This document shows positions 32,171 through 64,000 of a stretch of DNA of 64,000 nucleotides, one piece after another (within the stretch, counting starts at the first letter, position 1; every line of letters begins with the position of its first letter). The position numbers and the translations under genes are program-made. The notes under the pieces are model-generated. The model was not told where the DNA came from. It did no database searches and worked only from the letters and a program-made list of their open reading frames with translations. The stretch covers positions 26,977-90,976 of the forward strand of contig CAZUMH010000001.1 of assembly GCA_964621645.1 (NCBI GenBank), given 5' to 3'. This DNA is from an uncultured bacterium (GTDB lineage Bacteria; Zhuqueibacterota; QNDG01; JAGLOF01).

Positions 32171-32249
32171 AGTTCTTCCTCGCTCTCAAGATTATATGAC
32201 ATACATTCTATCGGAAAGCCGGACTAAAAGTACAGGAACACCGTACCAT

Positions 32250-33984: not shown

Positions 33985-34049
33985 TCCAATAATCTCCTGT
34001 AATTGTGCAGAGGAAGGGCCGTACGGTAATAATCCCCTTTATTAATAAG

Positions 34050-35237: not shown

Positions 35238-35377
35238 AACAGTTTCCTTGTAATGATTTTCATTCCGCAGAGGATTTTATCCCAACTGGATCAACAAAAT
35301 AACCGGATTATTTCCTGCTGCTTTTATCTATTCGATGATCCGCCGGTACAATTCCTCTCGGCCTCGATTGCTCCCAT

Positions 35378-37892: not shown

Positions 37893-38020
37893 AATTTCAG
37901 CCTCTCCATTATTGATTGGGATGTTGCCTGGTTGCATTTTTTCTTTTCAATCGCTTTACAGGAAGGTCCGCGGGCAATTGGATTTACCATATTATTTTTA
38001 ACTTCTTTGGTCAACGAAGA

Positions 38021-39043: not shown

Positions 39044-39083
39044 GATGTAATAATGCTCCCCTTTTTATTTTCAAGGGTATTGT

Positions 39084-41750: not shown

Positions 41751-41882
41751 ATTCTCTTCTTTTTTTTTGGAGAATAATCCGGAGAGGATAGTATGATGTT
41801 TATGCCTTCCGGGATACCTGTCCGGAACATTCGGAGATATCAGAGCCTACCCGTTCCGCGTTTCGGAACTGCTTCTATTCAC

Positions 41883-42218
41883 TTATTGGTGCTTACGAAG
41901 CTTTTCCAAGACGGCGCCGGCTTCGGGGGCGATTTTAATAAAATTCATTATTGTCTCACATCCGTAATCGTCACAGGCGGCACAATGTTCAACATTCCTG
42001 GAAATACAGCATTTCCGGATTTCGCAAATATTCTCACAATAAAAGAATTTTTTCCCCGTTGCAGTGCAGCCGTCACAGTTAATGCTTTCCGGCGTGATAT
42101 CGGACTTGTACATCTGGGTCCATTTCTCCGCTACTTCGGATCTGGCACGATCATCATCCGCTTGAGTAGCAAGATAGGCTTCACACTGTGAACAATCCAA
42201 CCCGCAATAAGCGATCAT
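41883..42218 (-). CDS. Cysteine-rich DUF3795-family protein
   Basis: [15 protein letters not shown]...CDGCTATG...[11 protein letters not shown]...CAACDDYGC. Multiple CxxC clusters typical of DUF3795. Confidence 0.55.
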
Positions 42219-42326
42219 TTTTCTCTCCCGTTAGCTTAAATGGTAAAATGGACTTCTCCCCGATCTTACTGCGCTCCTGCGTTCCATTGGAGAGCGAATC
42301 GGATTCCACACGCTTCCGCTCCAGTT

Positions 42327-43286: not shown

Positions 43287-43419
43287 GATCGCTCCTCTGA
43301 ATTAAATAATCTCAAGTCGATTTTGAATGAAAGATCAGTGTATGAAATATAATCAAATCAAACAGGTTTTGCAATGAAGGGATAGCGCCATTCACTGATC
43401 ACCTGATTCGAGGCGGCCC
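43287..43419. repeat. Promoter/5'-leader segment of the SGNH esterase gene, duplicated at 47889-48012
   Basis: About 75-80% identity over ~130 bp with 47889-48012. This includes the block AACAGGTTTTGCAATGAAGGGATAGCGCCATTCACTGATCACCTGATTCGAGGCGGCCC (43361-43419), which matches 47954-48012. Confidence 0.6.
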
Positions 43420-43576
43420 TACAATCTTTATCAACTTCGGTAGAATCACTTCCGGATGTACACCGCTCAACAATCTTCATCTTTTTAATTAAATGAATCG
43501 TAATGGTGGGAGTTTTAATTGCCACTGCTACTATTTTCCCGGGATCTAAAAGCGGTTAAAGAAATTTCGTTATTTA

Positions 43577-44269
43577 TCAAATTCTTATCAAAAATTGATA
43601 TAATGGCCCCAGGGTAAAGAAAGCCTCGATCAATTCATCGACCAATTTCGCCGAAAACAATATTTCATCTATAGATTTATTTCGACAGAAATAGAAGGAC
43701 TTTAGCTGGAACCATTCCTGTAGATCTTCCGGGCAATCATTTTTAATCGGTTTTTTATATTGTTCCCCTTCCAGACTGAATGGACTATCACTTTCTCTGT
43801 AAAAAGCAATTGCCCTTTTAAAGGATTTACTATTCTGACTTATCGCCTCTCTAAAATTATCCATGACTTTTCTGGAAGCACTGTAAAAACCCATGCCGTA
43901 TCTGTAGGAATCTACGGATATCTCAAAAAAATATCCAATTGACTCTTCCTGCCAGTTTTTCGATGGCCGTTTAAACACGATCCACATCTTATCCTTGAAA
44001 AGTGATTTATCTCTGGAGAATCGGGTGTCACGATAGATTCGTGATATTGTCCTGTTAATCGATGGCCTCGTTTCGAAATAGGGATCGATTGTCAGCATCG
44101 CTTCTTCCAGATCACCAACTAATTGCCGAAGTGGATCTAACAACATTCTTTGATACTCCGAATTAGGCTGTTGGAACCATGGTTTACTGTTGTTCTCTCT
44201 TACATTCCTGAGGAACTCCAGAGTGGCAGGGGAAAAACCGGAAAATGATTTGATATCTTGTTCATTCAT
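43577..44269 (-). CDS. DUF2461 (TIGR02453) family protein
   Basis: FLRNVRENNSKPWFQQP...YQ...DPYF...SRIYRDTRFSRDKSLFKD is the conserved DUF2461 signature. Confidence 0.75.
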   Translation of the reverse strand: MNEQDIKSFSGFSPATLEFLRNVRENNSKPWFQQPNSEYQRMLLDPLRQLVGDLEEAMLTIDPYFETRPSINRTISRIYRDTRFSRDKSLFKDKMWIVFKRPSKNWQEESIGYFFEISVDSYRYGMGFYSASRKVMDNFREAISQNSKSFKRAIAFYRESDSPFSLEGEQYKKPIKNDCPEDLQEWFQLKSFYFCRNKSIDEILFSAKLVDELIEAFFTLGPLYQFLIRI

Positions 44270-44513
44270 ATGAGTACTCTTATGGGAATAATGGTGTTAG
44301 GCACACAATCCTCCTAGTCCGGAAGGAGCTATTAGAACTGTTCTTTTCATTGCTATGTATCTTTTAAATGCCCGCCTTAATTTCACCCTGTGAATGAAAT
44401 CCTTTACGGACCTGCCGAAAGACGGAAATTGATCCGACTTGCTTAAATCGATTCGTCCGAAGAAGGCACATTCCTGATGAATATCCAAGATGAGCGGAGT
44501 TTCCTGTCACACC

Positions 44514-45512
44514 TCAGTGCCGCTGGGCCACATAAATATCCGACTCTATCTTATGTCCTTCATCATCATAGAATACATGGGTGAAATAGAGATTGCCCGC
44601 GGCGTCCAGACCCGGATCGCCGACATAGTTGGACACGATCTCTTCCGGAGTGCTCCAGGTATCACCGGATTTTCTTGATCTGAAAACTGCCGGCCCGCCA
44701 TAGCCCAGACCGCTTACTCTCGCGAACCAAAGATCAGCGCCATCCGCTGAAACAAAGGGTTGCCCTTCATTTCCGGACGTGTTAACCAGAGCGCCGAGAT
44801 TAACCGGTACGGACCAGCTCTCGCCCTGCCGGACTGTATGCCAGATATCGAGGTCGTTGCCCGAATTCGATTGTGCGCCAAAAAAAAGAGTCTTACCGCC
44901 CGCGGTCGGGTATAATTCACCAGCATCGAAATCCTGATTTAACTGTTCGCCGGCGTTCTGCCAGTTGGTCCAGGTCCCTTTGGAAAGTACCGCGGTCCAG
45001 ATATCCAGATCGCCGTAATTCCCCGCTCTGGCCGAACCGAACCAAAGTGTGTCTCCCTGGACGGCAAAAGGACCGTCCAGGTGCAGTTCACCCGGATCAG
45101 CCAGCCGGGCCCGTACCGGTTCCGTCCAGGAGGAGCCGTCCCAGGTGCACCACCACACACCGCTGACACCGTCGAAGAGCTGATCCTCAGCCGGAATGTT
45201 CCCGTCGGGCGTGAAGAAGAAGATGAATGTACTGCCGTCAGGAGTGATCACGGGGGCATCCTCAATACCGGCGGTGTTGATTGGACCGGCCATAGGGACT
45301 GTATCATAAAAGTCTGCGGAATGGAGCACGGGCGGAAAGTAATCAGTGGCGGGAGTCATTTTGACAGCATCCGCGGCAAGAGATTCCTCACGGGTCATTT
45401 CTTCCGAATCATCAGGATTTTGCTTGAGAGAACATCCGTAAAAAATAAAAATGACAGCTATCAAATGAATCTCAGGCGATAATGTCAACCACGAGAGCTT
45501 TTTTGTAATCAT
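44514..45512 (-). CDS. Lipoprotein with TolB-like PD40 beta-propeller repeats
   Basis: Lipobox FYGCS. ITPDGSTFIFFFT, LWFGSARAGNYGDLDIW and LFFGAQSNSGNDLDIW repeats. This is a paralog of 29247-30152. Confidence 0.65.
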   Translation of the reverse strand: MITKKLSWLTLSPEIHLIAVIFIFYGCSLKQNPDDSEEMTREESLAADAVKMTPATDYFPPVLHSADFYDTVPMAGPINTAGIEDAPVITPDGSTFIFFFTPDGNIPAEDQLFDGVSGVWWCTWDGSSWTEPVRARLADPGELHLDGPFAVQGDTLWFGSARAGNYGDLDIWTAVLSKGTWTNWQNAGEQLNQDFDAGELYPTAGGKTLFFGAQSNSGNDLDIWHTVRQGESWSVPVNLGALVNTSGNEGQPFVSADGADLWFARVSGLGYGGPAVFRSRKSGDTWSTPEEIVSNYVGDPGLDAAGNLYFTHVFYDDEGHKIESDIYVAQRH

Positions 45513-48422: not shown

Positions 48423-49094
48423 ATGCGAAGATGTATTTTATATGCCGCAACCATTATCGTTCTCCTTATAATATGTGCTTGTAATAATAAAGAGTTCGCC
48501 AAAGTTTATTGGCAGGGAGATTTGATTCAGAATAAGACGGATGTAAAGTATTTATACTGGCAGGATGGAAACCAGTATTTTCGACAACAGGAAGACAGTG
48601 TGATCGTAGAGTTGACAGGGTTTTCAGTAAATAGAATGGTTTTACTGCTCATTTCCTTAAGAAATAACAAAAACCAAATATTTACTTTCCTTCCTAATGA
48701 ATGTACATTATCGTACGACTTTGACGACAATCCTATCGATTTAAAACCGAGCAGACCGAAAAATCTGGATAAAAAGCAGCTTTCTCTATTCAATTCCATC
48801 ATCAGCAGCGCGGGTACTATCACCAAGCTGATTATTAATATACCGGCAGACAAGCTTATCTCACAAAAAAGACAAAGCCCATTGTCGACCATCGATTCAG
48901 AGTATAGAGAGAATGAGATTAAAATCACCAAAAAGATATTCGTTGGAAATCATACGTTGATGCCGCAGTCAAGCTATGCGGGATTTCTGGTATTTGAATA
49001 CGAAAAAGAGTATCCATTAATAGACCGTTTATTCACTATTCAAATAGTAACCGCTCACCATCAGTTTACGGCATCGGGGACACTCCGTTTATAA
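48423..49094 (+). CDS. Hypothetical lipoprotein in AT-rich islet
   Basis: Lipobox LLIICAC. The surrounding ~1.3 kb (48050-49400) is markedly AT-rich relative to the contig. No known domain. Confidence 0.5.
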   Translation: MRRCILYAATIIVLLIICACNNKEFAKVYWQGDLIQNKTDVKYLYWQDGNQYFRQQEDSVIVELTGFSVNRMVLLLISLRNNKNQIFTFLPNECTLSYDFDDNPIDLKPSRPKNLDKKQLSLFNSIISSAGTITKLIINIPADKLISQKRQSPLSTIDSEYRENEIKITKKIFVGNHTLMPQSSYAGFLVFEYEKEYPLIDRLFTIQIVTAHHQFTASGTLRL

Positions 49095-49870: not shown

Positions 49871-51232
49871 ATGAGGATTGTCATGAGTACTAAAAGAATT
49901 GTATGGCCCGGGATCATCCTGCTGATCTATTCTTGTGGGATGGGATTGGAAGGGATGCTGGCGGCCCAGGAGATCCTGCCGCCAAAGGCGGTGGAATTCC
50001 CGGCCGATTACACGACCGCGGACTGGAATCTGCCCGCGTCTCCCGCCCTGGCGGACTATGAGGAAGCCCTCCTGTATCATAATCCTGAGGTCAGGAGCGC
50101 CTATGAAACTTGGCGTGCCCAGGTGCGACAGATCGCCGTCAGCCGATCCCTGCCGGATCCGAAAATCAGTCTGGGGTATTTCATCCGGAATGTTGAGACC
50201 GCGGTGGGACCTCAGCAATACAAGATCGGTCTCTCCCAAATGATCCCCTGGTTCGGCAAACTGAGCCTGCAAGGTGATATTCAGGCCGGCCGGGCCCAGG
50301 CCTCCTATGAGCAGCTGCAGACCATGCTGAACAGCCGCATCCTAGAGCTGCGCCGGGTCTACTACGACGCCTACTATCTGGAACGCGCCGTCGCCATCAC
50401 TCGCCAGAACTTGGATCTGTTGCAGAACTGGGGAAAAGTCATACTGGCCAAATACAGCACCGGCACGGCCCGACACGCCAATCTGGTCAAAACCCAGATC
50501 GAGGTCATCAAATTGGAGGATGACCTGGAAACCCTCAAAGAGACACGCCGGCCCCTGCTGGCCTCCCTCCGGGCTCTCCTGAACCGGAATGATCTGGAAA
50601 AAATCAATCTGCCCGACAGCCTGGATTTCCGGCCCTTAGCCGTCACCAAGGATGAAGTTTTCCGGCTGGTTCTGGATGCTAATCCCGGGTTGGCCGGCCT
50701 GCGCTCCCTCAACCGGGTCGCCGAACAGTCAGTCACCCGGGCCAAACTGAACTATCTGCCGGATTTCTCCCTGGGACTGGAGCGGGTCTTCACCGGCGAC
50801 AAACTCAACGTCGCGGGAGTACCGGTACCCGGCAGCGGCAAGGATCCGCTGGTTGTGAGCGGCTCCCTCACCATCCCTCTCTGGTTCGGCAGGCAGTCTG
50901 CGGAGGTGAACCGGGCCCGCCATCTGGAGCAAAAATCCCAGGCCGACCTGGAAAGCGGCAAGAACGGACTGCGGCGGGAACTGGAGAGTCTCTGGTTCGA
51001 GCTGGAAAAATCCCGACGCCGGGTTAGCCTCTACCAGGATCAATTGATCCCCCGCAGCCTGGAATCGCTCCGGGCGGTGGAGAAATCCTATATTGGTGGA
51101 GAAATGGACTTTTTGAATTTAATAGACGCCCAGAGACGCCATCTGGAATTCACCCTGTCTCTGGAGAAATCCCTGGTGGAATACCACAAAGCCAAGGCCC
51201 GGCTCGAGGCTCTGGCGGGGAGGAACCTATGA
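49871..51232 (+). CDS. czcC: Outer-membrane efflux protein (TolC family; CzcC/CusC-type outer membrane factor)
   Basis: Signal peptide. Two tandem OEP repeats rich in L/Q/E coiled-coil (ALLYHNPEVRSAYETWRAQ..., ...LESLWFELEKSRRRVSLYQDQLIPRS...). The stop overlaps the next start (ATGA). Confidence 0.85.
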   Translation: MRIVMSTKRIVWPGIILLIYSCGMGLEGMLAAQEILPPKAVEFPADYTTADWNLPASPALADYEEALLYHNPEVRSAYETWRAQVRQIAVSRSLPDPKISLGYFIRNVETAVGPQQYKIGLSQMIPWFGKLSLQGDIQAGRAQASYEQLQTMLNSRILELRRVYYDAYYLERAVAITRQNLDLLQNWGKVILAKYSTGTARHANLVKTQIEVIKLEDDLETLKETRRPLLASLRALLNRNDLEKINLPDSLDFRPLAVTKDEVFRLVLDANPGLAGLRSLNRVAEQSVTRAKLNYLPDFSLGLERVFTGDKLNVAGVPVPGSGKDPLVVSGSLTIPLWFGRQSAEVNRARHLEQKSQADLESGKNGLRRELESLWFELEKSRRRVSLYQDQLIPRSLESLRAVEKSYIGGEMDFLNLIDAQRRHLEFTLSLEKSLVEYHKAKARLEALAGRNL

Positions 51233-53133
51233 ATCCAATTAAAAATATTCCGGCCTGGATAAGCTCGTCCCGAAAGGCTCTTGGGAAGCTGCCCCGCTTT
51301 GTCTGGCTGCTGCTGGCTCTGGCCTTTATCGCGGGGATGTTCGTACGGGGTTCCGCACCTGCCTCCCCCTCTTCTTCTGAAATACAGACAGAGGCGGATA
51401 CCACGACAGTGCGGTGGTGGACCTGCTCCATGCACCCCCAGATAAAACTTCCAAAACCCGGTCAGTGTCCCATCTGCTTCATGGATCTTATCCCCTTGGA
51501 GCAGGATGATTCCAGGGAAGCGCCCGGAGAACTGGCCATGTCCGAGGCGGCCGTGAAACTGGCGGAAATCAGCACCGTACCGGTGGTACGGGGAAAGGGG
51601 CATAAGAACCTGCGGCTCTCGGGAAAAGTCATGGTGGATGAAACCCGCCTGGGCCGCATCACTGCTTGGGCCGCGGGTCGGCTGGAAAAACTCTACGTCA
51701 ACTATACCGGAAGCTCCGTGAAAAAAGGCGATCCGCTGGTGCGGCTTTACAGCCCGGAACTCTACGTAGCTCAAGAGGAACTGCTTCAGGCCGGTCTGCT
51801 TCTGCGAGGAGCCACCACAGAGTCGCTGCGAGAATCGGCTCTGCTTAACAGGAAAGCGGCCCGGGGAAAACTGCGGGAACTGGGACTCACTCCGGCCCAG
51901 ATCGACGCCGTTGAAAAAAGCGGCAAAGCTTCCGACCGGATTACCATCACCAGCCCCCTGAGCGGGGTGATCACTCGCCTGGAAGCCCGGGAGGGCCTCT
52001 ATCTGAAACAAGGTTCACCCATCTGCTCCATCGCGGATCTGTCGGTCGTCTGGGTCGAGCTCGATGTCTATGAATCGGAACTGGCCTGGATCAAGAAAGG
52101 CCAATCCGTTACCTTTTCGGTTGAGGCACTCCCTGGCGTTCTCTTTAAGGGAAGGATTTTCTTTATCGATCCGCTGCTCCACTCCGAAACCAGAACGGTG
52201 CGGGCCCTGGTGGAGGCCGGGAACCGGGAAGGCCATCTGAAACCGGGAATGTTCGTGCGGGCCCGGGTCGAAGCGGTCATCAATGCGGATACGGAGGGCC
52301 GTCCACCCCTGCTGGTTCCCACCGCCGCGGTGCTGCAGACAGGCAAACGGGCCCTTGTCTATGTGCGGAAAGAAGGCACGGATAAGCCCGTTTTCCAGTC
52401 CCGGGAGATCGTCCTCGGACCCCGGGCGGATGACTACTATATCGTCGAGTCCGGATTGCAGCAAGGCGAAGAGGTGGTAGTGAAGGGGAATTTCAAGATA
52501 GACAGCGCCTTCCAGATAGCGGCCAAACCCAGCATGATGAGTCCCCAGGGCGGCCCCGCAGGCGGCGGCCACCATCACGAAGGGACGTTTCCAACGGGCA
52601 CGATGGATACAATCCCTCAGGAAGCGGAATCACAGGATCTGATGAGAGAGGATGGCTTTGTCGCTGAGCTCTCGGGAGTTTACCAGAGCTATTTCCAAGC
52701 CCAGCGGGCCCTGGCTGATGATGATTTCCCCGCGGCCCGTACGGCCCTGCGGGAGTTGGACGGAATCGTCACTTCCCTGGGCGATGATGGACTGCAAGGG
52801 AAACCGCTCGAACAGTGGCAGGTCCTGCGGGATTCCCTGCATCAAAGCCTTCAGCATGCTCCCCACTGGTCCGATATAGCGGACGCCAGGCTGGCCTTCG
52901 CTGCCATCAGCCGCGCCGTTCTCAGGATGGAAAGAGTCTACGGCCATCCGGGCGGAAAAACCCATTATGAAATCTTCTGCCCCATGGCCTTCAACAACAA
53001 AGGAGCCTTCTGGCTGCAGGATCAGGATACGGTGAAAAACTCCTTTTTCGGGGCCGCCATGCTCAGCTGCGGAGAGATAAAAAATACCTATACGCCGGTG
53101 GAAGGGGACCGGTCATCGGAAAAAGATAAATAG
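51229..53133 (+). CDS. czcB: Efflux RND periplasmic adaptor (CusB/CzcB family) with N-terminal heavy-metal-binding domain and C-terminal DUF3347-like domain
   Basis: WWTCSMHPQIKLPKPGQCPICFMDL is the HMBD found at the CusB N-terminus. Membrane-fusion-protein barrel-sandwich/hairpin regions (LSGKVMVDETRLGRITAWAAGRLEKLYV..., SPLSGVITRLEAREG). The C-terminus has a His run and YEIFCPMAFNNKGAFWLQ...CGE, matching DUF3347. Confidence 0.85.
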   Translation: MNPIKNIPAWISSSRKALGKLPRFVWLLLALAFIAGMFVRGSAPASPSSSEIQTEADTTTVRWWTCSMHPQIKLPKPGQCPICFMDLIPLEQDDSREAPGELAMSEAAVKLAEISTVPVVRGKGHKNLRLSGKVMVDETRLGRITAWAAGRLEKLYVNYTGSSVKKGDPLVRLYSPELYVAQEELLQAGLLLRGATTESLRESALLNRKAARGKLRELGLTPAQIDAVEKSGKASDRITITSPLSGVITRLEAREGLYLKQGSPICSIADLSVVWVELDVYESELAWIKKGQSVTFSVEALPGVLFKGRIFFIDPLLHSETRTVRALVEAGNREGHLKPGMFVRARVEAVINADTEGRPPLLVPTAAVLQTGKRALVYVRKEGTDKPVFQSREIVLGPRADDYYIVESGLQQGEEVVVKGNFKIDSAFQIAAKPSMMSPQGGPAGGGHHHEGTFPTGTMDTIPQEAESQDLMREDGFVAELSGVYQSYFQAQRALADDDFPAARTALRELDGIVTSLGDDGLQGKPLEQWQVLRDSLHQSLQHAPHWSDIADARLAFAAISRAVLRMERVYGHPGGKTHYEIFCPMAFNNKGAFWLQDQDTVKNSFFGAAMLSCGEIKNTYTPVEGDRSSEKDK

Positions 53134-53141
53134 GATTAGAA

Positions 53142-56100
53142 ATGGAAAAGGGAAATAAATCCTCCATTGTGAATACATTGATCAGGTTCTCACTGGAAAA
53201 CAAACTGATCGTCTTTCTCTTCTTTATCTCACTCATGGTCTGGGGTCTGCTGGTGGCACCTTTCGACTGGCATATCCCCGGCCTGGCCCGGGATCCGGTG
53301 CCGGTGGATGCCATTCCCGATATCGGTGAAAATCAGCAGATCGTCTTCACCAGCTGGAAGGGGCGCTCTCCCCAGGATGTCGAGGACCAGGTCACCTACC
53401 CCCTCACCGTCGCTCTGCTGGGGATTCCCGAGGTAAAGACGATCCGCTCCTACTCCATGTTCGGCTTTTCCACCATCTATGTCATCTTCAAGGAAAAGGC
53501 GGATTTTTACTGGTCCAGGAGCCGCATTCTGGAGAAACTGAACGCTCTGCCACCCGGCACCCTGCCCCCTGACACCAAACCCTCCCTGGGGCCGGATGCC
53601 ACCGCACTGGGGCAGGTCTTCTGGTATACGCTGGAGGGAAGGGATCACCAGGGGAATCCCGCCGGTGGCTGGGATCCAGAGGAGCTGCGTTCGGTACAGG
53701 ACTGGTATGTGCGTTACGCCCTTCAGTCAGCCGCGGGAGTTGCCGAAGTCGCCTCCGTGGGAGGGTACGTCAAGGAGTATCAGATCGATGTGGACCCGGC
53801 CGCCTTGCGGGAGCAAGGAATCACCCTTTCCGATGTGTTCACTGCCGTCCGCGGCTCCAATCTTGACGTGGGAGCGCGCACTGTGGAAATAAACCGGGTC
53901 GAATATGTCATCCGAGGACTGGGCTTCATCAGAAAGATGGAGGACCTGGAATACACCGCCGTGAAAACCCGGGATAACGTGCCGATTTACCTGAAAGATG
54001 TGGCCCATATTTCCCTGGGACCGGCCCCCCGGCGCGGTGCCCTGGACAAGGCTGGAGCCGAGGCCGTGGGCGGTGTGGTAGTGGTCCGCTATGGCGAAAA
54101 TCCCCTGGCCGCTATCAATAACGTCAAAAAGAAAATCCGGGAAATCAGCCCCGGATTGCCCAAAAAAACGCTGAAGGACGGTACCGTCTCCCAGGTGACC
54201 ATAGTGCCATTCTATGACAGATCCGGACTTATTTACGAGACCCTGGGGACCCTAAACCACGCCCTGCGGGACGAGATTCTCATCACCGTCATCGTCATTC
54301 TGGTGATGGTAATGCATTTGACCGCTTCGGCGCTGATTGCCGGCTTGCTGCCCATGTCGGTCCTGCTGGTCTTCATCGGCATGAAGATCTTTGGAGTGGA
54401 CGCCAATATCGTGGCCCTCTCCGGCATCGCCATCGCCATCGGAACCATCGTAGACATGGGCATTGTCGTTTCCGAAAATATCCTGAAACACCTGGAGAAA
54501 GCCCCCCCCGAAGAAAACAAGCTGGAAGTGATTTATCGCGCCGCAACAGAAGTGGGCGGCGCCGTGCTCACCGCGGTTTCCACCACGATTGTCAGCTTCC
54601 TGCCCGTCTTCGCCATGCAGGCGGCCGAAGGTAAATTGTTCAAACCGCTGGCCTACACCAAAACGCTGGCGCTCATCGCCTCTGTGATTCTGGCGTTGAC
54701 CCTGCTGCCGCCGCTGGCTCATATTCTAATGACCAGAAAGATTAAAAGCGAACGGGTCAAGACCGGATTCTATCTGGCCATTGGCATTCTGGGAGTCGTC
54801 TGTCTCATCACCGTCTCCTTCTGGCCCGGCCTGGCCGCCCTCCTCTTTTCTCTTTTCGGACTGGTTCGTTTCAGGCTTAAAAAGAACATTACCCGAAGGA
54901 TCCCCGCGGCCGCCAACTGGCTTATTATCTTTACCGTGGCCCTGATCCTCTCCACTACCTGGGCCCCTCTGGGATTCGGCCGTTCGGGATTTACAAATTT
55001 TATCTTTGTGGCCATTGTCCTGGCTGCCGTCCTGGGAGCATTGATGGGATTTATACGGATCTACCCCCGTCTGCTGGCCTGGGCCCTGGATCATAAGGTC
55101 AAAGCCCTGGCGGTTCCCCTGCTGGTGGTGCTCATTGGATATACCGTCTGGCTCGGCTTCGGCAATCTCACCGGCTTCCTGCCCGGATTTATGAAAAGGA
55201 CTCGGCCCTACCAGTATCTGGTGCATACCTTCCCCGGCCTGGGCAGCGAATTCATGCCGCCTCTTGACGAGGGCTCCTTCCTTTACATGCCCACCACCAT
55301 GCCCCACGCCGGCATGGAGGAGGCCTCCGATGTCCTGCGGAAACTGGATATGGCCATCTATGCCGTACCCGAAGTCGATATGGTTGTAGGCAAACTGGGC
55401 CGGGCCGAATCCCCCCTGGATCCGGCGCCGATCTCGATGATCGAAACCATCGTCAGTTACAAACCGGAGTATGTGGTGGATAAGAGCGGCAGGAGGATGA
55501 AATTTAACGTTGACAGAGAGGGCCGCTTTGTAAAGGACAAAAATGGCGAGCTCATCCCCGACTCCAGGGGCCGGCCTTACCGCAACTGGAGGGATCATAT
55601 CCACACCGCGGACGATATCTGGGATGAATTGGTACGGGCGGCCCGGCTGCCCGGAACCACTTCGGCGCCGCGACTCCAGCCCATATCGGCTCGGCTGGTG
55701 ATGCTGCAGAGCGGCATGCGTGCCCCCATGGGCGTCAAAATAAAGGGCCCTGATCTGGAGACCATTGAGAAGGTCGGAATGCGGCTGGAAAAACTCCTGA
55801 AACAGGTTCCGGATGTAGAATCATCCGCGGTTATTGCTGACAGGATTATAGGCAAACCCTATCTGGAAATCGCCATCGACCGCCGGGCCATCGCCCGTTA
55901 CGGCATCCCCCTCAGCCGGGTGCAGGAGATCATCGAAGTCGCCCTGGGCGGCAAGCAGCTCACCACCGCTGTCGAAGGACGGGAACGATATCCCATCCGT
56001 GTGCGCTATCTGCGGGAGCTGCGAGGCGACCCGGAATCACTGCAATCGGTTCTGGTTCCCGGTCAAAACAAGGTGCAGATTCCGCTGGGACAGCTGGCGG

Positions 56101-56912
56101 ATATCAACTACGTCCGCGGCCCCCAGATGATCAAGAGCGAGGACACCTTCCTGGTCGGGTACGTGCTCTTTGACAAGAAGGAAGGCCGGGCGGAAACGGA
56201 TGTTGTTCGGGAAGCGCAGCGCTTTCTGCAGCAGAAAATCGACACCGGCGAGCTGGTTATACCGGCCGGGGTCAGTTACACATTTGCCGGCAGTTACGAG
56301 AATCAGCAGCGGGCCGCCCAAAGGCTGCGCCTCATCCTGCCCCTGGCCCTTCTCGTCATTTTTCTGATTCTCTACCTCCAGTTCCGGCGTACCTCCACCA
56401 CCCTCATTGTTTTTTCCGGAATCTTCATGGCCTGGGCCGGAGGCTTTCTCATGCTCTGGCTCTACGGCCAGGAATGGTTCCTGCGCTTTTCCTTCGCCGG
56501 GGTTGACATGAGGGCTCTTTTTCAGATGCATCCGGTGAATCTTTCCGTGGCCGTCTGGGTCGGATTCCTCGCCCTCTTCGGCATCGCCAGCGACAATGGT
56601 GTCATCATCAGCACCTATCTGGATCAGAATTTCGCTCGTTTGCGGCCCGGGACCATTCAGGATATCCGCGAAGCCGCCGTGGAAGCCGGCAAACGCAGGA
56701 TCAGGCCGGCTATGATGACCACCGCCACCACCATTCTGGCCCTGATCCCGATTCTCACCTCCGTGGGCCGGGGAGCCGATGTCATGGTGCCCATGGCCAT
56801 TCCTTCTTTCGGCGGCATGTGCCTGGCGGTACTCACCACCTTCATCGTGCCTGTTCTCTACGCTGCTGTGGCGGAAAAACGTCTGGAGAAAGGACAGAAA
56901 AAATTGCGCTGA
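53142..56912 (+). CDS. czcA: Heavy-metal efflux RND transporter, CusA/CzcA (HME) family
   Basis: 1256 aa with 12 TM helices. RND motifs (GLLPMSVLLVFIGMKIFGVDANIVALSGIAIAIGTIVD). The large periplasmic loops carry insertions typical of FCB-group HME-RND pumps. Confidence 0.9.
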   Translation: MEKGNKSSIVNTLIRFSLENKLIVFLFFISLMVWGLLVAPFDWHIPGLARDPVPVDAIPDIGENQQIVFTSWKGRSPQDVEDQVTYPLTVALLGIPEVKTIRSYSMFGFSTIYVIFKEKADFYWSRSRILEKLNALPPGTLPPDTKPSLGPDATALGQVFWYTLEGRDHQGNPAGGWDPEELRSVQDWYVRYALQSAAGVAEVASVGGYVKEYQIDVDPAALREQGITLSDVFTAVRGSNLDVGARTVEINRVEYVIRGLGFIRKMEDLEYTAVKTRDNVPIYLKDVAHISLGPAPRRGALDKAGAEAVGGVVVVRYGENPLAAINNVKKKIREISPGLPKKTLKDGTVSQVTIVPFYDRSGLIYETLGTLNHALRDEILITVIVILVMVMHLTASALIAGLLPMSVLLVFIGMKIFGVDANIVALSGIAIAIGTIVDMGIVVSENILKHLEKAPPEENKLEVIYRAATEVGGAVLTAVSTTIVSFLPVFAMQAAEGKLFKPLAYTKTLALIASVILALTLLPPLAHILMTRKIKSERVKTGFYLAIGILGVVCLITVSFWPGLAALLFSLFGLVRFRLKKNITRRIPAAANWLIIFTVALILSTTWAPLGFGRSGFTNFIFVAIVLAAVLGALMGFIRIYPRLLAWALDHKVKALAVPLLVVLIGYTVWLGFGNLTGFLPGFMKRTRPYQYLVHTFPGLGSEFMPPLDEGSFLYMPTTMPHAGMEEASDVLRKLDMAIYAVPEVDMVVGKLGRAESPLDPAPISMIETIVSYKPEYVVDKSGRRMKFNVDREGRFVKDKNGELIPDSRGRPYRNWRDHIHTADDIWDELVRAARLPGTTSAPRLQPISARLVMLQSGMRAPMGVKIKGPDLETIEKVGMRLEKLLKQVPDVESSAVIADRIIGKPYLEIAIDRRAIARYGIPLSRVQEIIEVALGGKQLTTAVEGRERYPIRVRYLRELRGDPESLQSVLVPGQNKVQIPLGQLADINYVRGPQMIKSEDTFLVGYVLFDKKEGRAETDVVREAQRFLQQKIDTGELVIPAGVSYTFAGSYENQQRAAQRLRLILPLALLVIFLILYLQFRRTSTTLIVFSGIFMAWAGGFLMLWLYGQEWFLRFSFAGVDMRALFQMHPVNLSVAVWVGFLALFGIASDNGVIISTYLDQNFARLRPGTIQDIREAAVEAGKRRIRPAMMTTATTILALIPILTSVGRGADVMVPMAIPSFGGMCLAVLTTFIVPVLYAAVAEKRLEKGQKKLR

Positions 56913-57013
56913 TATGTGAGAAGAAAGAGGGAATGCGGGCAGACATTCAAGTCCAGATAAAATCTTACACACATGGCCCTCGACATATATCGGGGCCATT
57001 GCAGGTATATCAA

Positions 57014-57056
57014 CGAATAAAAATGGGCAGAAAGCGCTCATGGACGCCTTCTGCCC
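57014..57056 (-). terminator. Rho-independent terminator for the GEVED-repeat gene (12-bp stem with one mismatch GGGCAGAAAGCG/CGCCTTCTGCCC; T-run on minus strand)
   Basis: Hairpin 57025-57056, 20 bp downstream (minus orientation) of the stop at 57076. It is followed on the minus strand by ATTTTTATTCGTTG. Confidence 0.5.
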
Positions 57057-57075: not shown

Positions 57076-60000
57076 TTACTTGAGGAAGATCATTTTCCTG
57101 ACCGCCTTGTACCCTCCCATCTCGATCCGATAGAAATAGATACCTGATGAAAGGCCTTTCGCGTTAAACACAACGATATGGCTTCCCGCTTCATACCGCT
57201 TATTGGTCAACACTGCCATTTCTTCTCCCAGGATGCTGTAGACTTTCAGCGTGACGTTACAGGCCTTCTTCACGGTAAATCGAACGGTCGTCTCCGGATT
57301 GAATGGATTGGGATAATTCTGCAGCAGCTCGAATTCGCCCGGGATGCCAATGTATTGATCCTTTTCGCTGACATCGGTGACATTGACATTGATCAGATAG
57401 TCCTCAACCTCACCATCCGCGGCTGGCCCGTTGAAAGTCAGACCTCCGGCGGCGTTGAATCGGAATCTGGCAAAGAGAACCGAATCAGTGAACGCCGAAT
57501 CAGGTATGGAATAATTGAGGAAATTATTACCGGCATGCAGAGGCTGATTGATAAATATCTGTTCACCGCCGTCAAGCCAGTCACCATCGCTGTTGAAGTC
57601 GATCCAGGCGTTGATGAATCCGGAATCAGAAGCTGAGGCTGTCAATGTAGCGCCGGTTCCCGGAGAAAGCGGCGACGTAAAGAATATCCCGTCATCATCA
57701 TTATCTCCCGCTATATCATCCCCGTCAGCCACATTGTTCGGCTGGCCGTCATTTTCGCTGTCAATCTTGTTGCCTAACATATACCCTGACACCCATTTAT
57801 GCATGGCACCACCGCCAGCCCAGAGGGTTGGATAGGGTGGGTCAGGAGCGTCACCGAAGTCAAATTTTGTATCCGCCGTGCTGATCAGGACTGCGTAATC
57901 CTCCACTTCACCGATGGGAGGCAGATCGAGCTGATCGGGATAATCAGAGAAATGGGCCGGACCATCATACGACAATCCGCCGGTATCGCTAAAACGGAAC
58001 CGGGCGTAGGTTATCCCGGGTGCCGCTGAAGCGGGCACGGCAATGGAGATCAGGTTCGTTCCCGAAGACAACTGACCGTCCTGCACGATCTGCTCCCCCG
58101 CGTCGTCCCAGCTGGAATCGGCGTTGAAATCAATCCAGGCATTCAAGATACCGGAACCGGAAGCGGTCACCTGAAGCTGCATGGTTTGTCCTGGAATCAA
58201 GGCTTTGGGGAAACTGACTCCATCATCATCATCCATACCATCATTATCATCCCCGGAACCGCCGGGACCCGGCTGACCGTCAGGATCAGGATCCACATAG
58301 TTCCCGAGATGAAATCCCGACTGAATCGTGTGAATCGCCCCGCCGTCAACATGCAACACGCCGTAGGCTCGCGAGGGAACATCTCCGAAATCGAAGACAT
58401 CGCTGTAGTCATCGATTTTAATCAGATAGTCCTCGGTCTCACCGTCCACGAAATCACCTGAGCCGTCCCAGCCCCAATGTTCCACCATGGTTTTCGTGAT
58501 TGTACATCTCATCCAGGCATACCCGGCATTGGGACCGATTCTGAAGGTCGGCGGGGATTTTGTAGAGAGCAAGCCGCCGTCAGAAATGTAGAAATTACGC
58601 AGTACCCGTTCGGGAATCGTCGGGCTGCCGTCACCCGGGTCGATGATATCCTTCCAGTCACCATCCTGATTCCAATCGATGGCAACATTGATGTAGGCGC
58701 CGGTCTCATGCATATTTATCACGGTCATAAGATCGAGGTTGACACCCCAGGCGGCAATCTGCCCGATACTCCCGATGGTCTCGGGCAGTCCGGTGCCGTC
58801 ATCATAAGCGACCACGGTTTCAGAGCCGGCTGAACCGGTGATGTGATGAGGGAATACTCCCCGTAATCCGGCATCCCATTTATAGGACATGAGGAGCGTA
58901 TTGTGGAAATCCTCATCCGCATCATAGAAACCGGTAAACAGAGGACTGAAGCCGGCGTTTCCCTCATATTCATAATCCACTGAGTAACCAAAGTACCGGT
59001 CGCCGCCGTGAGCGTGCCTGATATACCCTTCACCGGTAACGTTGACACCGGTGGGGAACTGTCCTGTGACTCCGGTCGAGGGATAGGCCAGCGCGCCTTC
59101 AGGCGCGTCACCGTAATCATACATCCCGTCGTAGGAGACGCAGATGAGATAATCCTCCGTCTCACCATCACTAAACGTACCGGAGCCGTCCCAGTCGGAC
59201 GCTACCGGGGTATCGGAAAGAGTAACCCGCATCCAGGCGAATCCTTCCGTATTGCCGATGGTAAATTGAGGCGGACTCAGATCGCTCACTTTCCCCGTAC
59301 CCGCGGGAATGGGGAAATTTTGCAGCACATGCTCATCGGTATCACCCCAAGTACCGTTCTGGTTCCAGTCGATGAGAATATTCAGATAAGCTCCATCAGG
59401 ATCGGTCACACTGTAATGAATATCGAGGTAATTGTTATAAGCGAGATATCCCCAATGCACCAGCTCACCGGTTTCACCCAGCACTCCTTTATCCTGATGA
59501 TAGGCACTGTAGGCCCAGTAATGCAGATACCCGCCGGTTTCACGGATCGTGTAGGCATGCGGCGAGATGAGACCGATATCGCCGGTTGCCAGGGAACTGG
59601 TTCTTACATCGTTCATTCCTTCATCCTGGTCGTAATCGCCGCCAAAGGGCGGCAGGACTCCGGCATTCCCGTCCGTCTCATAATCGACGGACCACCCCAG
59701 CTGCCTGGTACCGGCTGTACCGTGTCTGACAAATCCGGCCGTGGTAATATCCTCGAAGGTGGGGAATTGACCGGTGACACCCAGATGAGGATAGGCCTCG
59801 GCATTTTCCGGGGCATCACCGTATTCGTAGAGAATCTCCAGCCGGTCGAATATATTGATGCGGTAGTCTTCCACCTCTCCGTTGATCGCGTCTCCGCCCA
59901 CGGAATCGATCGGCAGCGTGGAGTATCGGAACCGGATATAGGCTGTTCCAGCATGGAAAAGGGAATCCTCCACGCTGATGTCGATTTCATTGACACCAGC

Positions 60001-62472
60001 CTGTACCTGAATCTTTGTCGCTTCATAGACAAAATTACCAGCTGCCAATGGCTTGCTGTTCTGCCCGTTCCCTGTGGATGGGTACCCGCACCAAATACCG
60101 AGGAATCCATTCTGGGAGGCGCTTACCACCGCGGTCACCGTATCTCCCAGTACCCAAGCGCCCTTAAAGGAGACACCATCATCGTCATCGTTCTGGTCGC
60201 TGCTGAAATCACCCATAGCCGTCGAATCAGGTGTGCCGTCCTCATCGGCATCCACGCCGGAACCGAGATAGATTTCTGGGTCAATCATATGGCGGGCGCC
60301 CCCCTGCTGTCGGAGCGTGGGGAACGGCCAAGGCGCATCTCCGTAATCGAACATCATCTTTCCGATGCGAACCCGGTAATCCTCAACCTCCCCGGCGTGT
60401 GAACTCGGTCCGTCGGAGCCTGGCAGCGCATCATCATCAGAGTAGCGGAAGCGGGCGTAAGTGTAGCCGATATGAACATCCGCCGGAATGAGACGACGGT
60501 AGGTGTTGGTTCCGTCAGAGGTAGTGATACCGTCAAAAATTTTCTCGCCTGCATCATTAAAATCGCCATCATGATTGAAGTCGATCCAGCCGTGCAGCAA
60601 GGGATAGAAAGGTGATGTATAGTTTCCCCAGGTGGTAATCTCGAAACTGCTCTCCTCTCCAGGAATCAGTTCGGAGAACACAACGCCGTCTTCATCATCA
60701 TGGCCGTCGGTATCATCCCCCAAGGCATCAGGATCGGGACTTCCATCAAGTTCATTGTCAGTATAAGTGGTACCCAGAAAAATGAGGATATTCCCCCGAT
60801 GACAGGCACCATCGGGCTCGAGTGTGCCGTATGAATCGGGAGCGTCACCGTAATCGAGATATGCTTCGGTTACGGTGCACAAGTAGTCCTCAACCTCCCC
60901 GTTGCCGCCACGGCCATAGGGGGTCAGGAGCGGATCGACGCTGTAACGGAAGCGGGCGTAGGTGTTGCCAAGTTCAGCGGTTTCCGGCACATTAAAATTC
61001 ACCGGGTATATCCCGGTGCCGTGGGTGTTATTATAATTAATTACATACTCCCCGGCATCGGCCCAGTCGCCATCCCGGTTCCAGTCGAACCAGCCGTGCA
61101 GGGTGCCGGTGCCTTTGCATGAAACAATCACCATTGACGCCTCTCCCGGAGTAAGCGCCATCCAAAAGAGAATGCCCTTTTCATCGTCTAGGTCGGTATC
61201 ATTGTCACCTCTGGCGTTAAGTGTAGGCTGGCCGTTGCCTTCCAAATCGGGAGGTGTGCCGGGCATGTAGGAGTAGAGATCAGACCCCCTGTCTACCAGA
61301 TAGATCGTATCGGAAACAGTGTGTCTGGCACCGTTATGGGACCGGAGGGTGGGGTAATGATATATGTCGTCATCAGGAGCGTCCCCATAGTCAAAGAAGT
61401 GGAAATTCTCGATGTAAAACTGCATATCCTCTACTTCACCTTTTGTCACCAGCCCGGTGGCGCCGGGAATGGTGTTCTCGGAATAACGGAAGCGGGCAAA
61501 GGTATTGCCTTCCTTGGCGTCAGCCGGAACGACGATACCGATATCATTGGCGCCCGCTCCAACCTGAGTATCTGCCGCCTCTTCACCGGCGTCATCCCAA
61601 TCACCGTCCTGGTTCCAGTCGAACCAGGCCTTGAGATATCCGCCTGATGATGCGGTAATCCTGACAAGGGCAGTGTCACCCGGGACAAGTTCCTGCAGCA
61701 ATTCGATGCCGTCCTCATCATCGTTCCCGTCATTGTCGTCTCCGGTGGCAGTGGAATCAGGCTGTCCGTCAGTGTCGGCGTCCACACCCTGTCCAAGATA
61801 GATACCTTCGGCGATGGTGTGTCTGGCTCCGCCTTCGTTCAACAGGGTCGGATAGGGTGCGGGAGCGTCACCGAAATCATAGGAATCAGGCGGTGATGAA
61901 TCGGTAATGGTCACCAGATAATCTTCCACTTCACCCTCATATCCATATCCGGTATAGGAAATACCGCCGTTGCTGTTGAAACGGAAACGGGCAAAAGTGT
62001 ATCCTGCGGCAGCACCCGAGGGGACAGAGATGTTGAGAGTATTATTACCGGCTGAAAGGGCTTGATTTGAAAAAATATGTTCACCCGCATCGGCCCAGTC
62101 GCCGTCATCGTTAAAGTCGAGCCAGGCGTTCAGGGTGCCGCTCGCAGAAGCAGTGACAACAATTGTGGCCGTACTGCCTTTAATCAGTGTGGAGAAACTG
62201 ACGCCGTCTTCATCATCGGTGTTATTATTGTCGTCTCCTTTTCCATCAGAAGAAGGTATTCCGTCATTTTCATCATCAACCTTGTTCCCCAAATAGAATC
62301 CAGCGACAATTTTATGGTAGGCGCCGTTGGAATTCAATATTGTCGGATAGGGATTGGGGGCATCTCCAAAGTCATAGAGAGTCTTCTGGGCAAACACGGC
62401 ATTCCCTGCCGCCAGCAAGAGAACAGCCAGCAGTATCCCTGTTTTTCGAACAACAGTACTAAACCTCATCAT
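57076..62472 (-). CDS. Giant T9SS cargo protein composed of nine tandem ~190-aa Asp-rich repeats, each ending in a GEVED motif (GEVEDY / GETEDY)
   Basis: Signal peptide. Nine units of the form Y-DFGDAP-x-PYPT...GARH...LG..VD.D.DG.P...GDD.DG.DDEDGV.F...L.PG...AW.DFN.DGDW.D.GE...ARFR(F/Y)S...GEVEDY. The C-terminus LLQNYPNPFNPETTVRF...VYSILGEEM...SGIYFYRIEMGGY..KMIFLK is a T9SS CTD. Confidence 0.85.
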   Translation of the reverse strand: MMRFSTVVRKTGILLAVLLLAAGNAVFAQKTLYDFGDAPNPYPTILNSNGAYHKIVAGFYLGNKVDDENDGIPSSDGKGDDNNNTDDEDGVSFSTLIKGSTATIVVTASASGTLNAWLDFNDDGDWADAGEHIFSNQALSAGNNTLNISVPSGAAAGYTFARFRFNSNGGISYTGYGYEGEVEDYLVTITDSSPPDSYDFGDAPAPYPTLLNEGGARHTIAEGIYLGQGVDADTDGQPDSTATGDDNDGNDDEDGIELLQELVPGDTALVRITASSGGYLKAWFDWNQDGDWDDAGEEAADTQVGAGANDIGIVVPADAKEGNTFARFRYSENTIPGATGLVTKGEVEDMQFYIENFHFFDYGDAPDDDIYHYPTLRSHNGARHTVSDTIYLVDRGSDLYSYMPGTPPDLEGNGQPTLNARGDNDTDLDDEKGILFWMALTPGEASMVIVSCKGTGTLHGWFDWNRDGDWADAGEYVINYNNTHGTGIYPVNFNVPETAELGNTYARFRYSVDPLLTPYGRGGNGEVEDYLCTVTEAYLDYGDAPDSYGTLEPDGACHRGNILIFLGTTYTDNELDGSPDPDALGDDTDGHDDEDGVVFSELIPGEESSFEITTWGNYTSPFYPLLHGWIDFNHDGDFNDAGEKIFDGITTSDGTNTYRRLIPADVHIGYTYARFRYSDDDALPGSDGPSSHAGEVEDYRVRIGKMMFDYGDAPWPFPTLRQQGGARHMIDPEIYLGSGVDADEDGTPDSTAMGDFSSDQNDDDDGVSFKGAWVLGDTVTAVVSASQNGFLGIWCGYPSTGNGQNSKPLAAGNFVYEATKIQVQAGVNEIDISVEDSLFHAGTAYIRFRYSTLPIDSVGGDAINGEVEDYRINIFDRLEILYEYGDAPENAEAYPHLGVTGQFPTFEDITTAGFVRHGTAGTRQLGWSVDYETDGNAGVLPPFGGDYDQDEGMNDVRTSSLATGDIGLISPHAYTIRETGGYLHYWAYSAYHQDKGVLGETGELVHWGYLAYNNYLDIHYSVTDPDGAYLNILIDWNQNGTWGDTDEHVLQNFPIPAGTGKVSDLSPPQFTIGNTEGFAWMRVTLSDTPVASDWDGSGTFSDGETEDYLICVSYDGMYDYGDAPEGALAYPSTGVTGQFPTGVNVTGEGYIRHAHGGDRYFGYSVDYEYEGNAGFSPLFTGFYDADEDFHNTLLMSYKWDAGLRGVFPHHITGSAGSETVVAYDDGTGLPETIGSIGQIAAWGVNLDLMTVINMHETGAYINVAIDWNQDGDWKDIIDPGDGSPTIPERVLRNFYISDGGLLSTKSPPTFRIGPNAGYAWMRCTITKTMVEHWGWDGSGDFVDGETEDYLIKIDDYSDVFDFGDVPSRAYGVLHVDGGAIHTIQSGFHLGNYVDPDPDGQPGPGGSGDDNDGMDDDDGVSFPKALIPGQTMQLQVTASGSGILNAWIDFNADSSWDDAGEQIVQDGQLSSGTNLISIAVPASAAPGITYARFRFSDTGGLSYDGPAHFSDYPDQLDLPPIGEVEDYAVLISTADTKFDFGDAPDPPYPTLWAGGGAMHKWVSGYMLGNKIDSENDGQPNNVADGDDIAGDNDDDGIFFTSPLSPGTGATLTASASDSGFINAWIDFNSDGDWLDGGEQIFINQPLHAGNNFLNYSIPDSAFTDSVLFARFRFNAAGGLTFNGPAADGEVEDYLINVNVTDVSEKDQYIGIPGEFELLQNYPNPFNPETTVRFTVKKACNVTLKVYSILGEEMAVLTNKRYEAGSHIVVFNAKGLSSGIYFYRIEMGGYKAVRKMIFLK
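57372..62390 (-). repeat. Nine tandem coding repeats (~570 bp period, diverged) of the GEVED-domain unit
   Basis: Periodicity of the DFGDAP and GEVEDY motifs seen in the translation. Copies are divergent at the DNA level. Confidence 0.6.
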
Positions 62473-62979
62473 GTCCTCCTGTCTTGATGTCTACAGAGAA
62501 AATATATATGTAAAAAACAGTATTCATCCAGAAGGCTGTCAATACATGAAAATGATTTCAGCTGTTCATCAGGGGTGAAACAGGGACAACATTTCACAGT
62601 TACGCTGTCACCGCAAGGACGGTGTATCGACATATTCATACGTAAAAATACGCATCGAATAAGGGCGTAATAAGGATGTGTTCCGGTTACGACGACGTGT
62701 GGTGTATGCCAAGGTATGGATATTTTTGCTTGATGTCAATTTATTTTCAGATCTAACATTTCTGAATGTGAGTGACCGCCCCGGGCAATATTGCCTGGGA
62801 TACAGTCTTGGGGGGCCTCTGCTCCGGATGAACGTTCAGGGGCATAGGAATTTTTGCTTAAAAGTTGCAGGCCTTAGACCCAGGAGGTTACGCATTAATG
62901 CGAGTCGGAATATACAGGTCTCACTTCAAATGTTTGTGAGAATGTAATTGGCAAAGTGAATTGCCGTCAAGACTAAAGT

Positions 62980-63936
62980 TCACCGGGATATTCCCGCCGG
63001 TTTCTGCCAGAATATCGTCTCGTCATTTATAGAATAGATCTTTTCACCACGGCCGGTGAGCCGGTATTTCCGCAGCTGTTCGGATTTGTATCCGTCGGGG
63101 ATCAGCTCGAAAAACTCCCTGACCCGAACAGTGTCCTGAGCGAATCTGCTGTATTCCGGGCAGCGCATCTTGAAGACAAATTCGGAGAGAAACCAGAGGT
63201 AATTGGCACCTTCGATGAAATTACCGAGATTGAACCAGGCCATTTCGAGACCGCTTCTGCCCACATGGTGCACCTTCATCGGCGCGCCTGAGATCAATCC
63301 TCTCCTGATCTCTGCCACACCCAGGATGTTCCCCTTCTTATCGGTCACATAGGCACCAAAATCCGGATCCATGAGAATCCATTTGTCCAGGGTTTGGGAG
63401 AACACCGACGTGACAAAGTGACTCTCCTCTTCCTCATGGGAATATGGCAGGAGATGGGTGTGACGGGAATAGAATCCCATAGACAGATAGACTTCATTGA
63501 GAATGACTGTCTTCATATAGCAGTTGATATTCATATGTTGATCTTTCGCCAAATGAATAAATGAAAAGGCATTGCGTTCGGCGGGAACAGCCGGCTCATT
63601 GGCATGCGCGGCCAGGCCGTATACCCAGGTCATCAGGTTGATGATTCGCTCGGTTTCCGATCCCTGCCCGGCAATGCTGTCCAGATCATATTGCTTCCGC
63701 AGTCTTCTAAGATTTTCATCCGTGGAATCGGAATATAGGAAGGTAACGTCGATGGGATAGCCCGTCCCCTGAGCGGAAAAGCCCGGATGCTGCTTCAAAT
63801 GGGACATCCATTCTTTGCCCATCGATACATATTTATGCCGTTCCTGTAGTTCCGGGATTACTGCCTCGAAAATAATGAACAACAGGAACAAGACAGCCAG
63901 AACACCAATAGAAATTTTAATGATTAATTTTTTCAT
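62980..63936 (-). CDS. Hypothetical N-terminally membrane-anchored protein
   Basis: GGGAAG RBS and a single N-terminal TM (LIIKISIGVLAVLFLLFIIF). No recognisable domain. The gene runs to the window edge and is intact. Confidence 0.5.
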   Translation of the reverse strand: MKKLIIKISIGVLAVLFLLFIIFEAVIPELQERHKYVSMGKEWMSHLKQHPGFSAQGTGYPIDVTFLYSDSTDENLRRLRKQYDLDSIAGQGSETERIINLMTWVYGLAAHANEPAVPAERNAFSFIHLAKDQHMNINCYMKTVILNEVYLSMGFYSRHTHLLPYSHEEEESHFVTSVFSQTLDKWILMDPDFGAYVTDKKGNILGVAEIRRGLISGAPMKVHHVGRSGLEMAWFNLGNFIEGANYLWFLSEFVFKMRCPEYSRFAQDTVRVREFFELIPDGYKSEQLRKYRLTGRGEKIYSINDETIFWQKPAGISR

Positions 63937-64000
63937 ATAAGCTTCCCTGTGGCTCATGCAGTGACCCATCCATCGGGTTATACGGGCTGGATGAATATCC

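Follow-up and report, generated by a model that had tools for sequence, protein, structure and literature searches.

A long gene in a 64,000-nt stretch of DNA from an uncultured bacterium of the Zhuqueibacterota (contig CAZUMH010000001.1; hereafter, the window) encodes a protein composed almost entirely of nine tandem units, each containing a GEVED domain (PF20009) and together capped by a C-terminal sorting domain for the type IX secretion system (T9SS). The gene occupies positions 57076..62472 of the minus strand; translation from its ATG yields 1798 amino acids (aa). Our analysis places the product in a large, known but functionally uncharacterised family, of which it is an ordinary member. 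With slightly better than even confidence, we favour a T9SS-exported, acidic rod or fibril of nine modules that is stiffened by Ca2+ and may act as a surface stalk, spacer, adhesin or coat.

The repeat array is defined by two sets of motifs. Nine copies of the N-terminal motif [DE][FY]GD[AV]P are present (aa 34, 199, 361, 540, 709, 883, 1119, 1361 and 1538), and nine of the C-terminal motif GE[VT]ED[YM] (aa 180, 345, 525, 694, 865, 1103, 1344, 1521 and 1687); the two sets are in register and delimit exactly nine units that cover aa 32–1694 and fill nearly the whole mature protein. Across the whole protein, PF20009 matches in eight stretches with a score of 348 bits (cut-off 24.4); scanned singly, all nine units match (E <= 0.01), with unit 1 alone returning 60.8 bits. 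A sequence-only reading of the window had described nine tandem GEVED-containing units making up almost the entire product of this open reading frame (ORF), leaving the strand unstated and naming a search with the GEVED hidden Markov model (HMM) as one check; both the ORF and the ninefold array are borne out. The period of approximately 190 aa given by the same reading holds as a mean (188 aa, or 564 bp) and not as a uniform value, as successive units are spaced by 165, 162, 179, 169, 174, 236, 242 and 177 aa (range 162–242) and two of them are long. Seven units are canonical (156–174 aa), while units 6 and 7 represent a long subtype (230 and 235 aa) that carries GETEDY, lacks the DDEDG cluster and has an insertion of ~70 aa in the alignment. 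The GEVED form of the C-terminal motif is found in seven units and GETED in two, and the linkers between units are ~5–9 residues long. The features of the gene, in the direction of transcription, are as follows.

62475..62480, minus strand: Shine-Dalgarno sequence AGGAGG, 2 nt 5′ of the ATG at 62472 (read from the sequence)
62389..62472, minus strand: Sec signal peptide, aa 1–28, MMRFSTVVRKTGILLAVLLLAAGNAVFA then QK (translation read by eye)
61912..62379, minus strand: unit 1, aa 32–187, canonical, 156 aa, DFGDAP...GEVEDY (motifs, alignment, Pfam GEVED on unit residues 83–156, AlphaFold)
61417..61884, minus strand: unit 2, aa 197–352, canonical, GEVEDM (motifs, alignment, Pfam, AlphaFold)
60877..61398, minus strand: unit 3, aa 359–532, canonical with a 12-aa loop insertion (motifs, alignment, Pfam)
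60370..60861, minus strand: unit 4, aa 538–701, canonical (motifs, alignment, Pfam, positional orthologues)
59857..60354, minus strand: unit 5, aa 707–872, canonical, W.DFN.DGDW loop degenerate (GIWCGYPSTGNGQN) (motifs, alignment, Pfam)
59143..59832, minus strand: unit 6, aa 881–1110, long subtype, 230 aa, GETEDY (motifs, alignment, Pfam)
58420..59124, minus strand: unit 7, aa 1117–1351, long subtype, 235 aa, GETEDY
57889..58398, minus strand: unit 8, aa 1359–1528, canonical with an insertion (FSDYPDQLDLPPI) before GEVEDY (motifs, alignment, Pfam)
57391..57867, minus strand: unit 9, aa 1536–1694, canonical (motifs, alignment, Pfam, positional orthologues)
57088..57315, minus strand: type A T9SS C-terminal sorting domain, aa 1720–1795 (PF18962 and TIGR04183)
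57015..57056, minus strand: intrinsic terminator, 13-bp stem and 6-nt loop, then AUUUUUAUU (folding)

Secretion signals are present at both ends of the protein. Read by eye, the N-terminus displays a basic n-region, a hydrophobic core and a VFA cleavage motif. The C-terminal stretch aa 1720–1795, at the very end of the protein, matches both Por_Secre_tail (PF18962; 35.9 bits, cut-off 27) and TIGR04183 (38.5 bits, cut-off 23), in agreement with the proposal that the protein is T9SS cargo with a Por sorting domain. A dedicated terminator had also been predicted ~20 bp past the stop codon, and a hairpin is indeed present 19 nt past it (57056..57025, minus strand), with eight G-C pairs in its stem and a minimum free energy of -24.8 kcal/mol (z = -5.5 relative to shuffled sequences). 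It is placed between the GEVED-array gene and a convergent gene for an RND efflux pump, which ends at 56912. The intergenic stretch 5′ of the GEVED-array gene is 507 nt long. With its own strong ribosome-binding site and terminator, the gene looks like a single-gene transcription unit. A 334-aa ORF (56037..57041, minus strand) runs antisense to the 3′ end of the pump gene and starts inside the terminator hairpin; it is most likely spurious.

The conserved unit extends well beyond the Pfam model. Pfam GEVED spans only unit residues 83–156, i.e. the C-terminal ~75 residues, and the N-terminal halves scanned alone against Pfam returned no family even at E <= 10. Across 982 homologous units, positions D3, G5, D6, A7, P8, T14, G20, H23, G32, D36, G41, D50, D57 and G60 of the N-terminal half are each at least 90 % conserved, so that the conserved unit is about double the length that Pfam models. 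AlphaFold, given an alignment of 34 unit pairs, predicts two β-sandwiches for units 1–2 with a mean predicted local distance difference test (pLDDT) score of 93 and a predicted template modelling (pTM) score of 0.64; the fold of the unit is therefore confident, but the angle between units is uncertain. Modelling had been suggested as a check for a β-sandwich in the repeat, and each unit is predicted to form one immunoglobulin (Ig)-like β-sandwich, with the GEVED region providing most of the strands. The N-terminal ~60 residues consist mainly of loops with a few short strands, yet are confidently placed. Unit 7, modelled on an alignment of 27 long-type units, forms a single compact domain (pLDDT 88.7, pTM 0.89). 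Foldseek matches were to tandem β-sandwich proteins, e.g. the MG domains of complement C3 and the biofilm scaffold RbmA, and the long units 6–7 returned no specific structural match.

The protein is strongly acidic, comprising 11.3 % Asp and 12.5 % Gly, with 288 acidic residues, a net charge of -202 and a calculated pI of 4.05. It contains 16 D-x-[DNE]-x-[DN]-G motifs, compared with 0.87 +/- 0.94 expected from 2000 composition-preserving shuffles, and by our own count 10 of the 16 fit the strict form Dx[DN]xDG, an established Ca2+-binding linear motif that occurs in many folds (PMC3123361). The resemblance of the acidic clusters to calcium-binding loops, remarked on in the sequence-only reading, is therefore far above chance. 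The motifs occupy two fixed sites in each unit, VD.E.DG.P and W.D.N.DG.W, the second of which directly follows a β-strand in the model of units 1–2 (strand, model residues 83–89; loop, 90–102). Conservation reaches at least 90 % at 26 positions of the 982 homologous units, including D3, D6, D36, D50, D57, D90, E152, E154 and D155; G151, E152, E154 and D155 are present in all of them (rounded to 100 %), and every unit of the present protein has an invariant His. To judge by their motifs, these loops may bind Ca2+.

Searches with the whole protein returned at least 4188 proteins at E <= 1e-10. The best 120 matches all contain at least five full units, and 40 of these have nine or more (maximum 16). 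Using a unit profile of 158 positions in an exhaustive search of cluster representatives (50 % identity), we obtained 21,870 clusters at E <= 0.001, 13,489 at E <= 1e-10 and 5,185 at E <= 1e-30; the largest array observed is in P0121, a protein of 7658 aa with 34 stretches matching the profile. These numbers contradict the rarity implied for the architecture in the sequence-only reading. Rather, the architecture is common, because proteins consisting of a GEVED array and a T9SS tail alone exist among the closest relatives (P0002, with 11 units and 51 % identity; P0024, P0026 and P0032, with six units each). Many other relatives have GEVED arrays fused to enzymes or other domains (S8 peptidase, PKD, sialidase-like). 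Several close relatives are annotated as KSB1, and bacterial genome matches span KSB1-like bacteria, Acidobacteriota, Planctomycetota, Cytophagia, Marinimicrobia, Lentimicrobiaceae, Cloacimonadota, Eisenbacteria, cyanobacteria, Chloroflexota and Thiotrichales. Matches were also found in contigs assigned to several archaeal lineages and in cultured Photobacterium species, the latter (L018, L021, L025 and L033) encoding very large relatives with 26–29 % identity over nearly the whole query. The locus L025 lists no complete ORF, presumably because the giant gene extends past its end. The best genome match overall has 51 % identity. Photobacterium is not known to use T9SS.

Within the family, the order of the units is conserved. 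For each unit of the present protein, the counterpart at the matching position of P0002, P0007 or P0024 is nearer (56–69 % identity) than any sister unit (41–54 %). Unit 3 is the positional orthologue of P0002 unit 3 (62 %) and unit 8 that of P0007 unit 8 (69 %) and P0024 unit 5 (60 %), while unit 6 has long units as its orthologues, namely P0002 unit 9 (56 %) and P0007 unit 6 (55 %). Unit lengths in the relatives are bimodal (150–180 and 220–260 aa), with a median linker of 6 aa, and 54 of the 82 long units in the top matches sit in adjacent pairs. As a rule, a canonical unit comes next after such a long-long pair, as in ccLLcc, ccLLcLLcc and cccccLLcLLc (c, canonical; L, long). This order points to positional specialisation with block duplication; conserved internal order and a recurring long pair together argue against a purely generic spacer.

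The closest known proteins are other multi-GEVED secreted proteins (P0002; P0024, which is MBN2410997.1 from KSB1; and P0006 from Lentimicrobium), some relatives being labelled by NCBI as 'GEVED domain-containing protein' or 'T9SS type A sorting domain-containing protein'. These share the same unit, tandem layout and short linkers, and their units match ours position by position, including the long-long pair; P0002 and P0024 also have the same T9SS tail, and P0002 aligns to 87 % of the query with 51 % identity. They differ in unit number (nine here, six in P0024, 11 in P0002 and up to 34 in P0121), and many relatives carry S8 peptidase, PKD, DUF7901 or DUF11 domains, none of which occurs in the present protein. 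A search of the literature available to us found no experimental work on tandem GEVED arrays.

GEVED (PF20009) was defined as a stalk-associated domain of CshA-type fibrillar adhesins in Gram-positive bacteria (Barringer et al. 2023, PMC10952558). In every unit described here, this HMM matches the C-terminal ~75 residues, with GE[VT]ED at their end. In CshA-type proteins, however, a single GEVED comes after the ligand-binding domain NR2, close to the tip of a stalk anchored through LPxTG (PMC10952558), whereas the present protein has nine in tandem, no NR2, a T9SS tail and a unit twice the length of the Pfam model. Fibrillar adhesins are recognised by stalk repeats, a surface anchor and an adhesive domain; the first two have counterparts here in the nine β-sandwich units and the T9SS C-terminal domain, but Pfam and NCBIfam detected GEVED and the sorting domain only and hence no adhesive domain. 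A second comparison is with the tandem Ig-like extenders of large bacterial adhesins, rigidified by Ca2+, as in the Lap adhesin (PDB 6xi3), with which there is no sequence homology. Adhesins of this kind use type I secretion and RTX repeats, and no such family was detected in our protein by Pfam or NCBIfam. Their extender Ca2+ sites lie mainly at domain junctions, unlike the present motifs, which sit in loops within each module.

The closest solved fold to the unit is domain IV of the enzyme Endo HS-alpha (PDB 9x1i), termed 'novel' in the paper reporting the 2026 structure. Like the last GEVED unit, it sits just before a T9SS sorting domain; it differs in being a single copy within a GH85 enzyme, as opposed to nine tandem units. 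PDB sequences contained nothing that matched the unit profile (A1) or a unit-pair profile (A2), even with the threshold relaxed to E <= 10, so that sequence gives no support for regarding 9x1i domain IV as a GEVED unit.

Combining these observations, we infer the following route and architecture. The Sec signal peptide would direct the protein to the periplasm, where the type A C-terminal domain would hand it over to T9SS. This system cleaves the type A domain and then either anchors its cargo to the outer-membrane surface or releases it. The mature protein would consist of nine Ig-like β-sandwich modules of ~155–235 aa, whose acidic loops would bind Ca2+ and lock each module, producing a stiff polyanionic rod or fibril. 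On the cell surface, such a rod could serve as stalk, spacer, adhesin or coat, and the long modules 6 and 7, on account of their conserved position, would be the best candidates for ligand binding.

Several observations weigh against this interpretation. Neither Pfam nor NCBIfam reveals a head domain of adhesive or enzymatic type. The label 'adhesin' is accordingly tentative, as are 'abundant' and 'surface-layer', which the sequence-only reading also proposed. Ca2+ binding is predicted from the motifs, and the second acidic loops are degenerate in units 5 and 8. The paper on Endo HS-alpha mentions neither GEVED nor calcium and lists 12 unspecified ion atoms. Among the scanned ORFs of the window, we recognised no core gene of the T9SS machinery. 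Finally, we compared the window ORFs of at least 100 aa by BLASTP with the ORFs of 83 loci (80 from the genome scan and L001–L003) and found no conserved operon: the query gene itself and tail-to-tail similarities among T9SS cargo proteins were the only matches, so no neighbour gene is shared with the relatives and the context offers no functional clue.

The most probable alternative is a multivalent, lectin-like glycan-binding protein, in which the modules, or at least the long pair 6–7, would bind polysaccharide and tether the cell to a polymeric substrate or capture glycans for the organism's degradative enzymes. The authors of the Endo HS-alpha structure proposed that domain IV recognises N-glycan antennae, and the nearest structural neighbour of that domain is an O-antigen-binding domain; the proposal itself, however, rests on docking. 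The conserved position of the long-long pair in relatives would also fit a ligand-binding role, as would the presence in the window of a GH3 enzyme with PA14, a GH43 enzyme, a sulfatase, a SASA-type esterase and an esterase with a T9SS tail. Conversely, no carbohydrate-binding family was detected in the protein by Pfam, and no glycoside hydrolase occurs among conserved neighbours. We consider this reading unlikely.

Less probable again is a surface coat resembling a surface layer (S-layer), i.e. a polyanionic layer secreted in bulk and held together by divalent cations in place of discrete fibrils or adhesins. A mature protein of repeats only, with no head domain, would suit such a role, as would the extreme charge and the gene's own strong ribosome-binding site and terminator, which fit a single-gene transcription unit. 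Nevertheless, the matches to S-layer proteins are ordinary Ig-like matches, and the fusion of arrays to enzymes in many relatives fits a spacer better than a lattice.

The GEVED-array gene converges on a three-gene operon (49871..56912, plus strand) of the heavy-metal RND type, similar to CusCBA/CzcCBA, which encodes an outer-membrane factor (OEP), an HlyD adaptor with a heavy-metal-binding domain and DUF3347, and a 1256-aa pump of the AcrB family, longer than typical RND pumps. This arrangement, together with the 288 acidic residues and the invariant His of every unit, raises the idea of an extracellular sink for Ca2+ or toxic metals tied to the operon. We regard it as very improbable: in 82 related loci that we inspected, the efflux operon is never adjacent, the closest relative has an unrelated gene context, and the genes are convergent and not co-transcribed. 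A functional link to the metal-efflux operon was therefore rejected, as the neighbourhood is not conserved.

The divergence of the units bears on their age and on the reliability of their number. Pairs of units share 25–55 % identity in protein and 40–56 % in DNA, and in a codon-level comparison only 26–44 % at third codon positions, which is near random; the duplications that gave rise to the units must therefore be old. The low DNA identity, together with the positional orthologues in relatives, upholds the earlier proposal that the diverged repeats reflect constraint and not recent amplification. Tandem repeats are a recognised source of error in metagenome assemblies, but no assembler could collapse or expand copies that differ this much, independent assemblies contain a separate positional orthologue for each unit, and Tandem Repeats Finder reported no long-period array in the region (its longest period, 500 bp, compares with unit periods of 486–726 bp), so that we reject an artefactual repeat count as having almost no chance of being correct and take the count of nine as reliable. 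An identical 1798-aa protein exists on an NCBI record, but it probably derives from the same assembly and does not constitute independent support.

Elsewhere in the window, three further proteins have T9SS-type tails (139..8040, 22825..24720 and 35378..36526), making four cargo genes in 64 kb and offering what may be indirect support for the presence of T9SS in this genome. The first (plus strand, 2633 aa) contains Laminin_G_3, a right-handed β-helix, a matrixin (M10) peptidase, CarboxypepD_reg, three Big_5 domains, TIG, a β-propeller/lactonase, FIMAH and a C-terminal domain of the FlgD_ig type in place of Por_Secre_tail; it is probably another T9SS cargo. The second (plus strand, 631 aa) has Por_Secre_tail and no other recognised domain, and the third (minus strand) is an esterase/PHB-depolymerase-like hydrolase with Por_Secre_tail. 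A glycan-degrading cluster at 30620..45512 comprises genes for a sulfatase, a DUF4185 protein, a GH43 enzyme, a GH3 enzyme with a PA14 insert and a SASA-type acetylesterase, which suggests that the organism may have a polysaccharide-degrading lifestyle. Directly upstream of the GEVED-array gene lies a 329-aa ORF (62980..63969, minus strand) that has no Pfam match at the thresholds applied and no counterpart in related loci. Further ORFs lacking a Pfam match at these thresholds are located at 11437..12834 (plus), 10045..10878 (minus), 36942..37937 (minus) and 48423..49094 (plus); including the 329-aa ORF, the set ranges from 223 to 465 aa. A search of the whole window against Rfam returned no matches.

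Beyond the favoured interpretation of the single protein, we tentatively put forward a broader proposal, which we hold with clearly less than even confidence. The true unit may be a metal-loaded module of ~155 aa (DFGDAP...ARH...DxExDG...DDEDG...WxDxNxDGxW...ARFR...GEVED), only half of which is represented in Pfam; arrays composed of stalk only may constitute a very large class of polyanionic surface fibrils, stiffened or cross-linked by cations, in many bacterial and archaeal phyla; and the long-long cassette may be their ligand-binding element. If this is true, the first member with a solved structure would be Endo HS-alpha domain IV, although it was not recognised as such.

Because the family comprises tens of thousands of sequence clusters, the one gene described here changes little by itself. 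More is to be gained from the family, which is widespread in environmental bacteria and often makes up the bulk of very large secreted proteins. The double-length unit with its unannotated acidic half, the structural relative in Endo HS-alpha and the conserved array order with its long pair offer guides for work on it, and the Photobacterium relatives could give a genetically tractable entry to the family.

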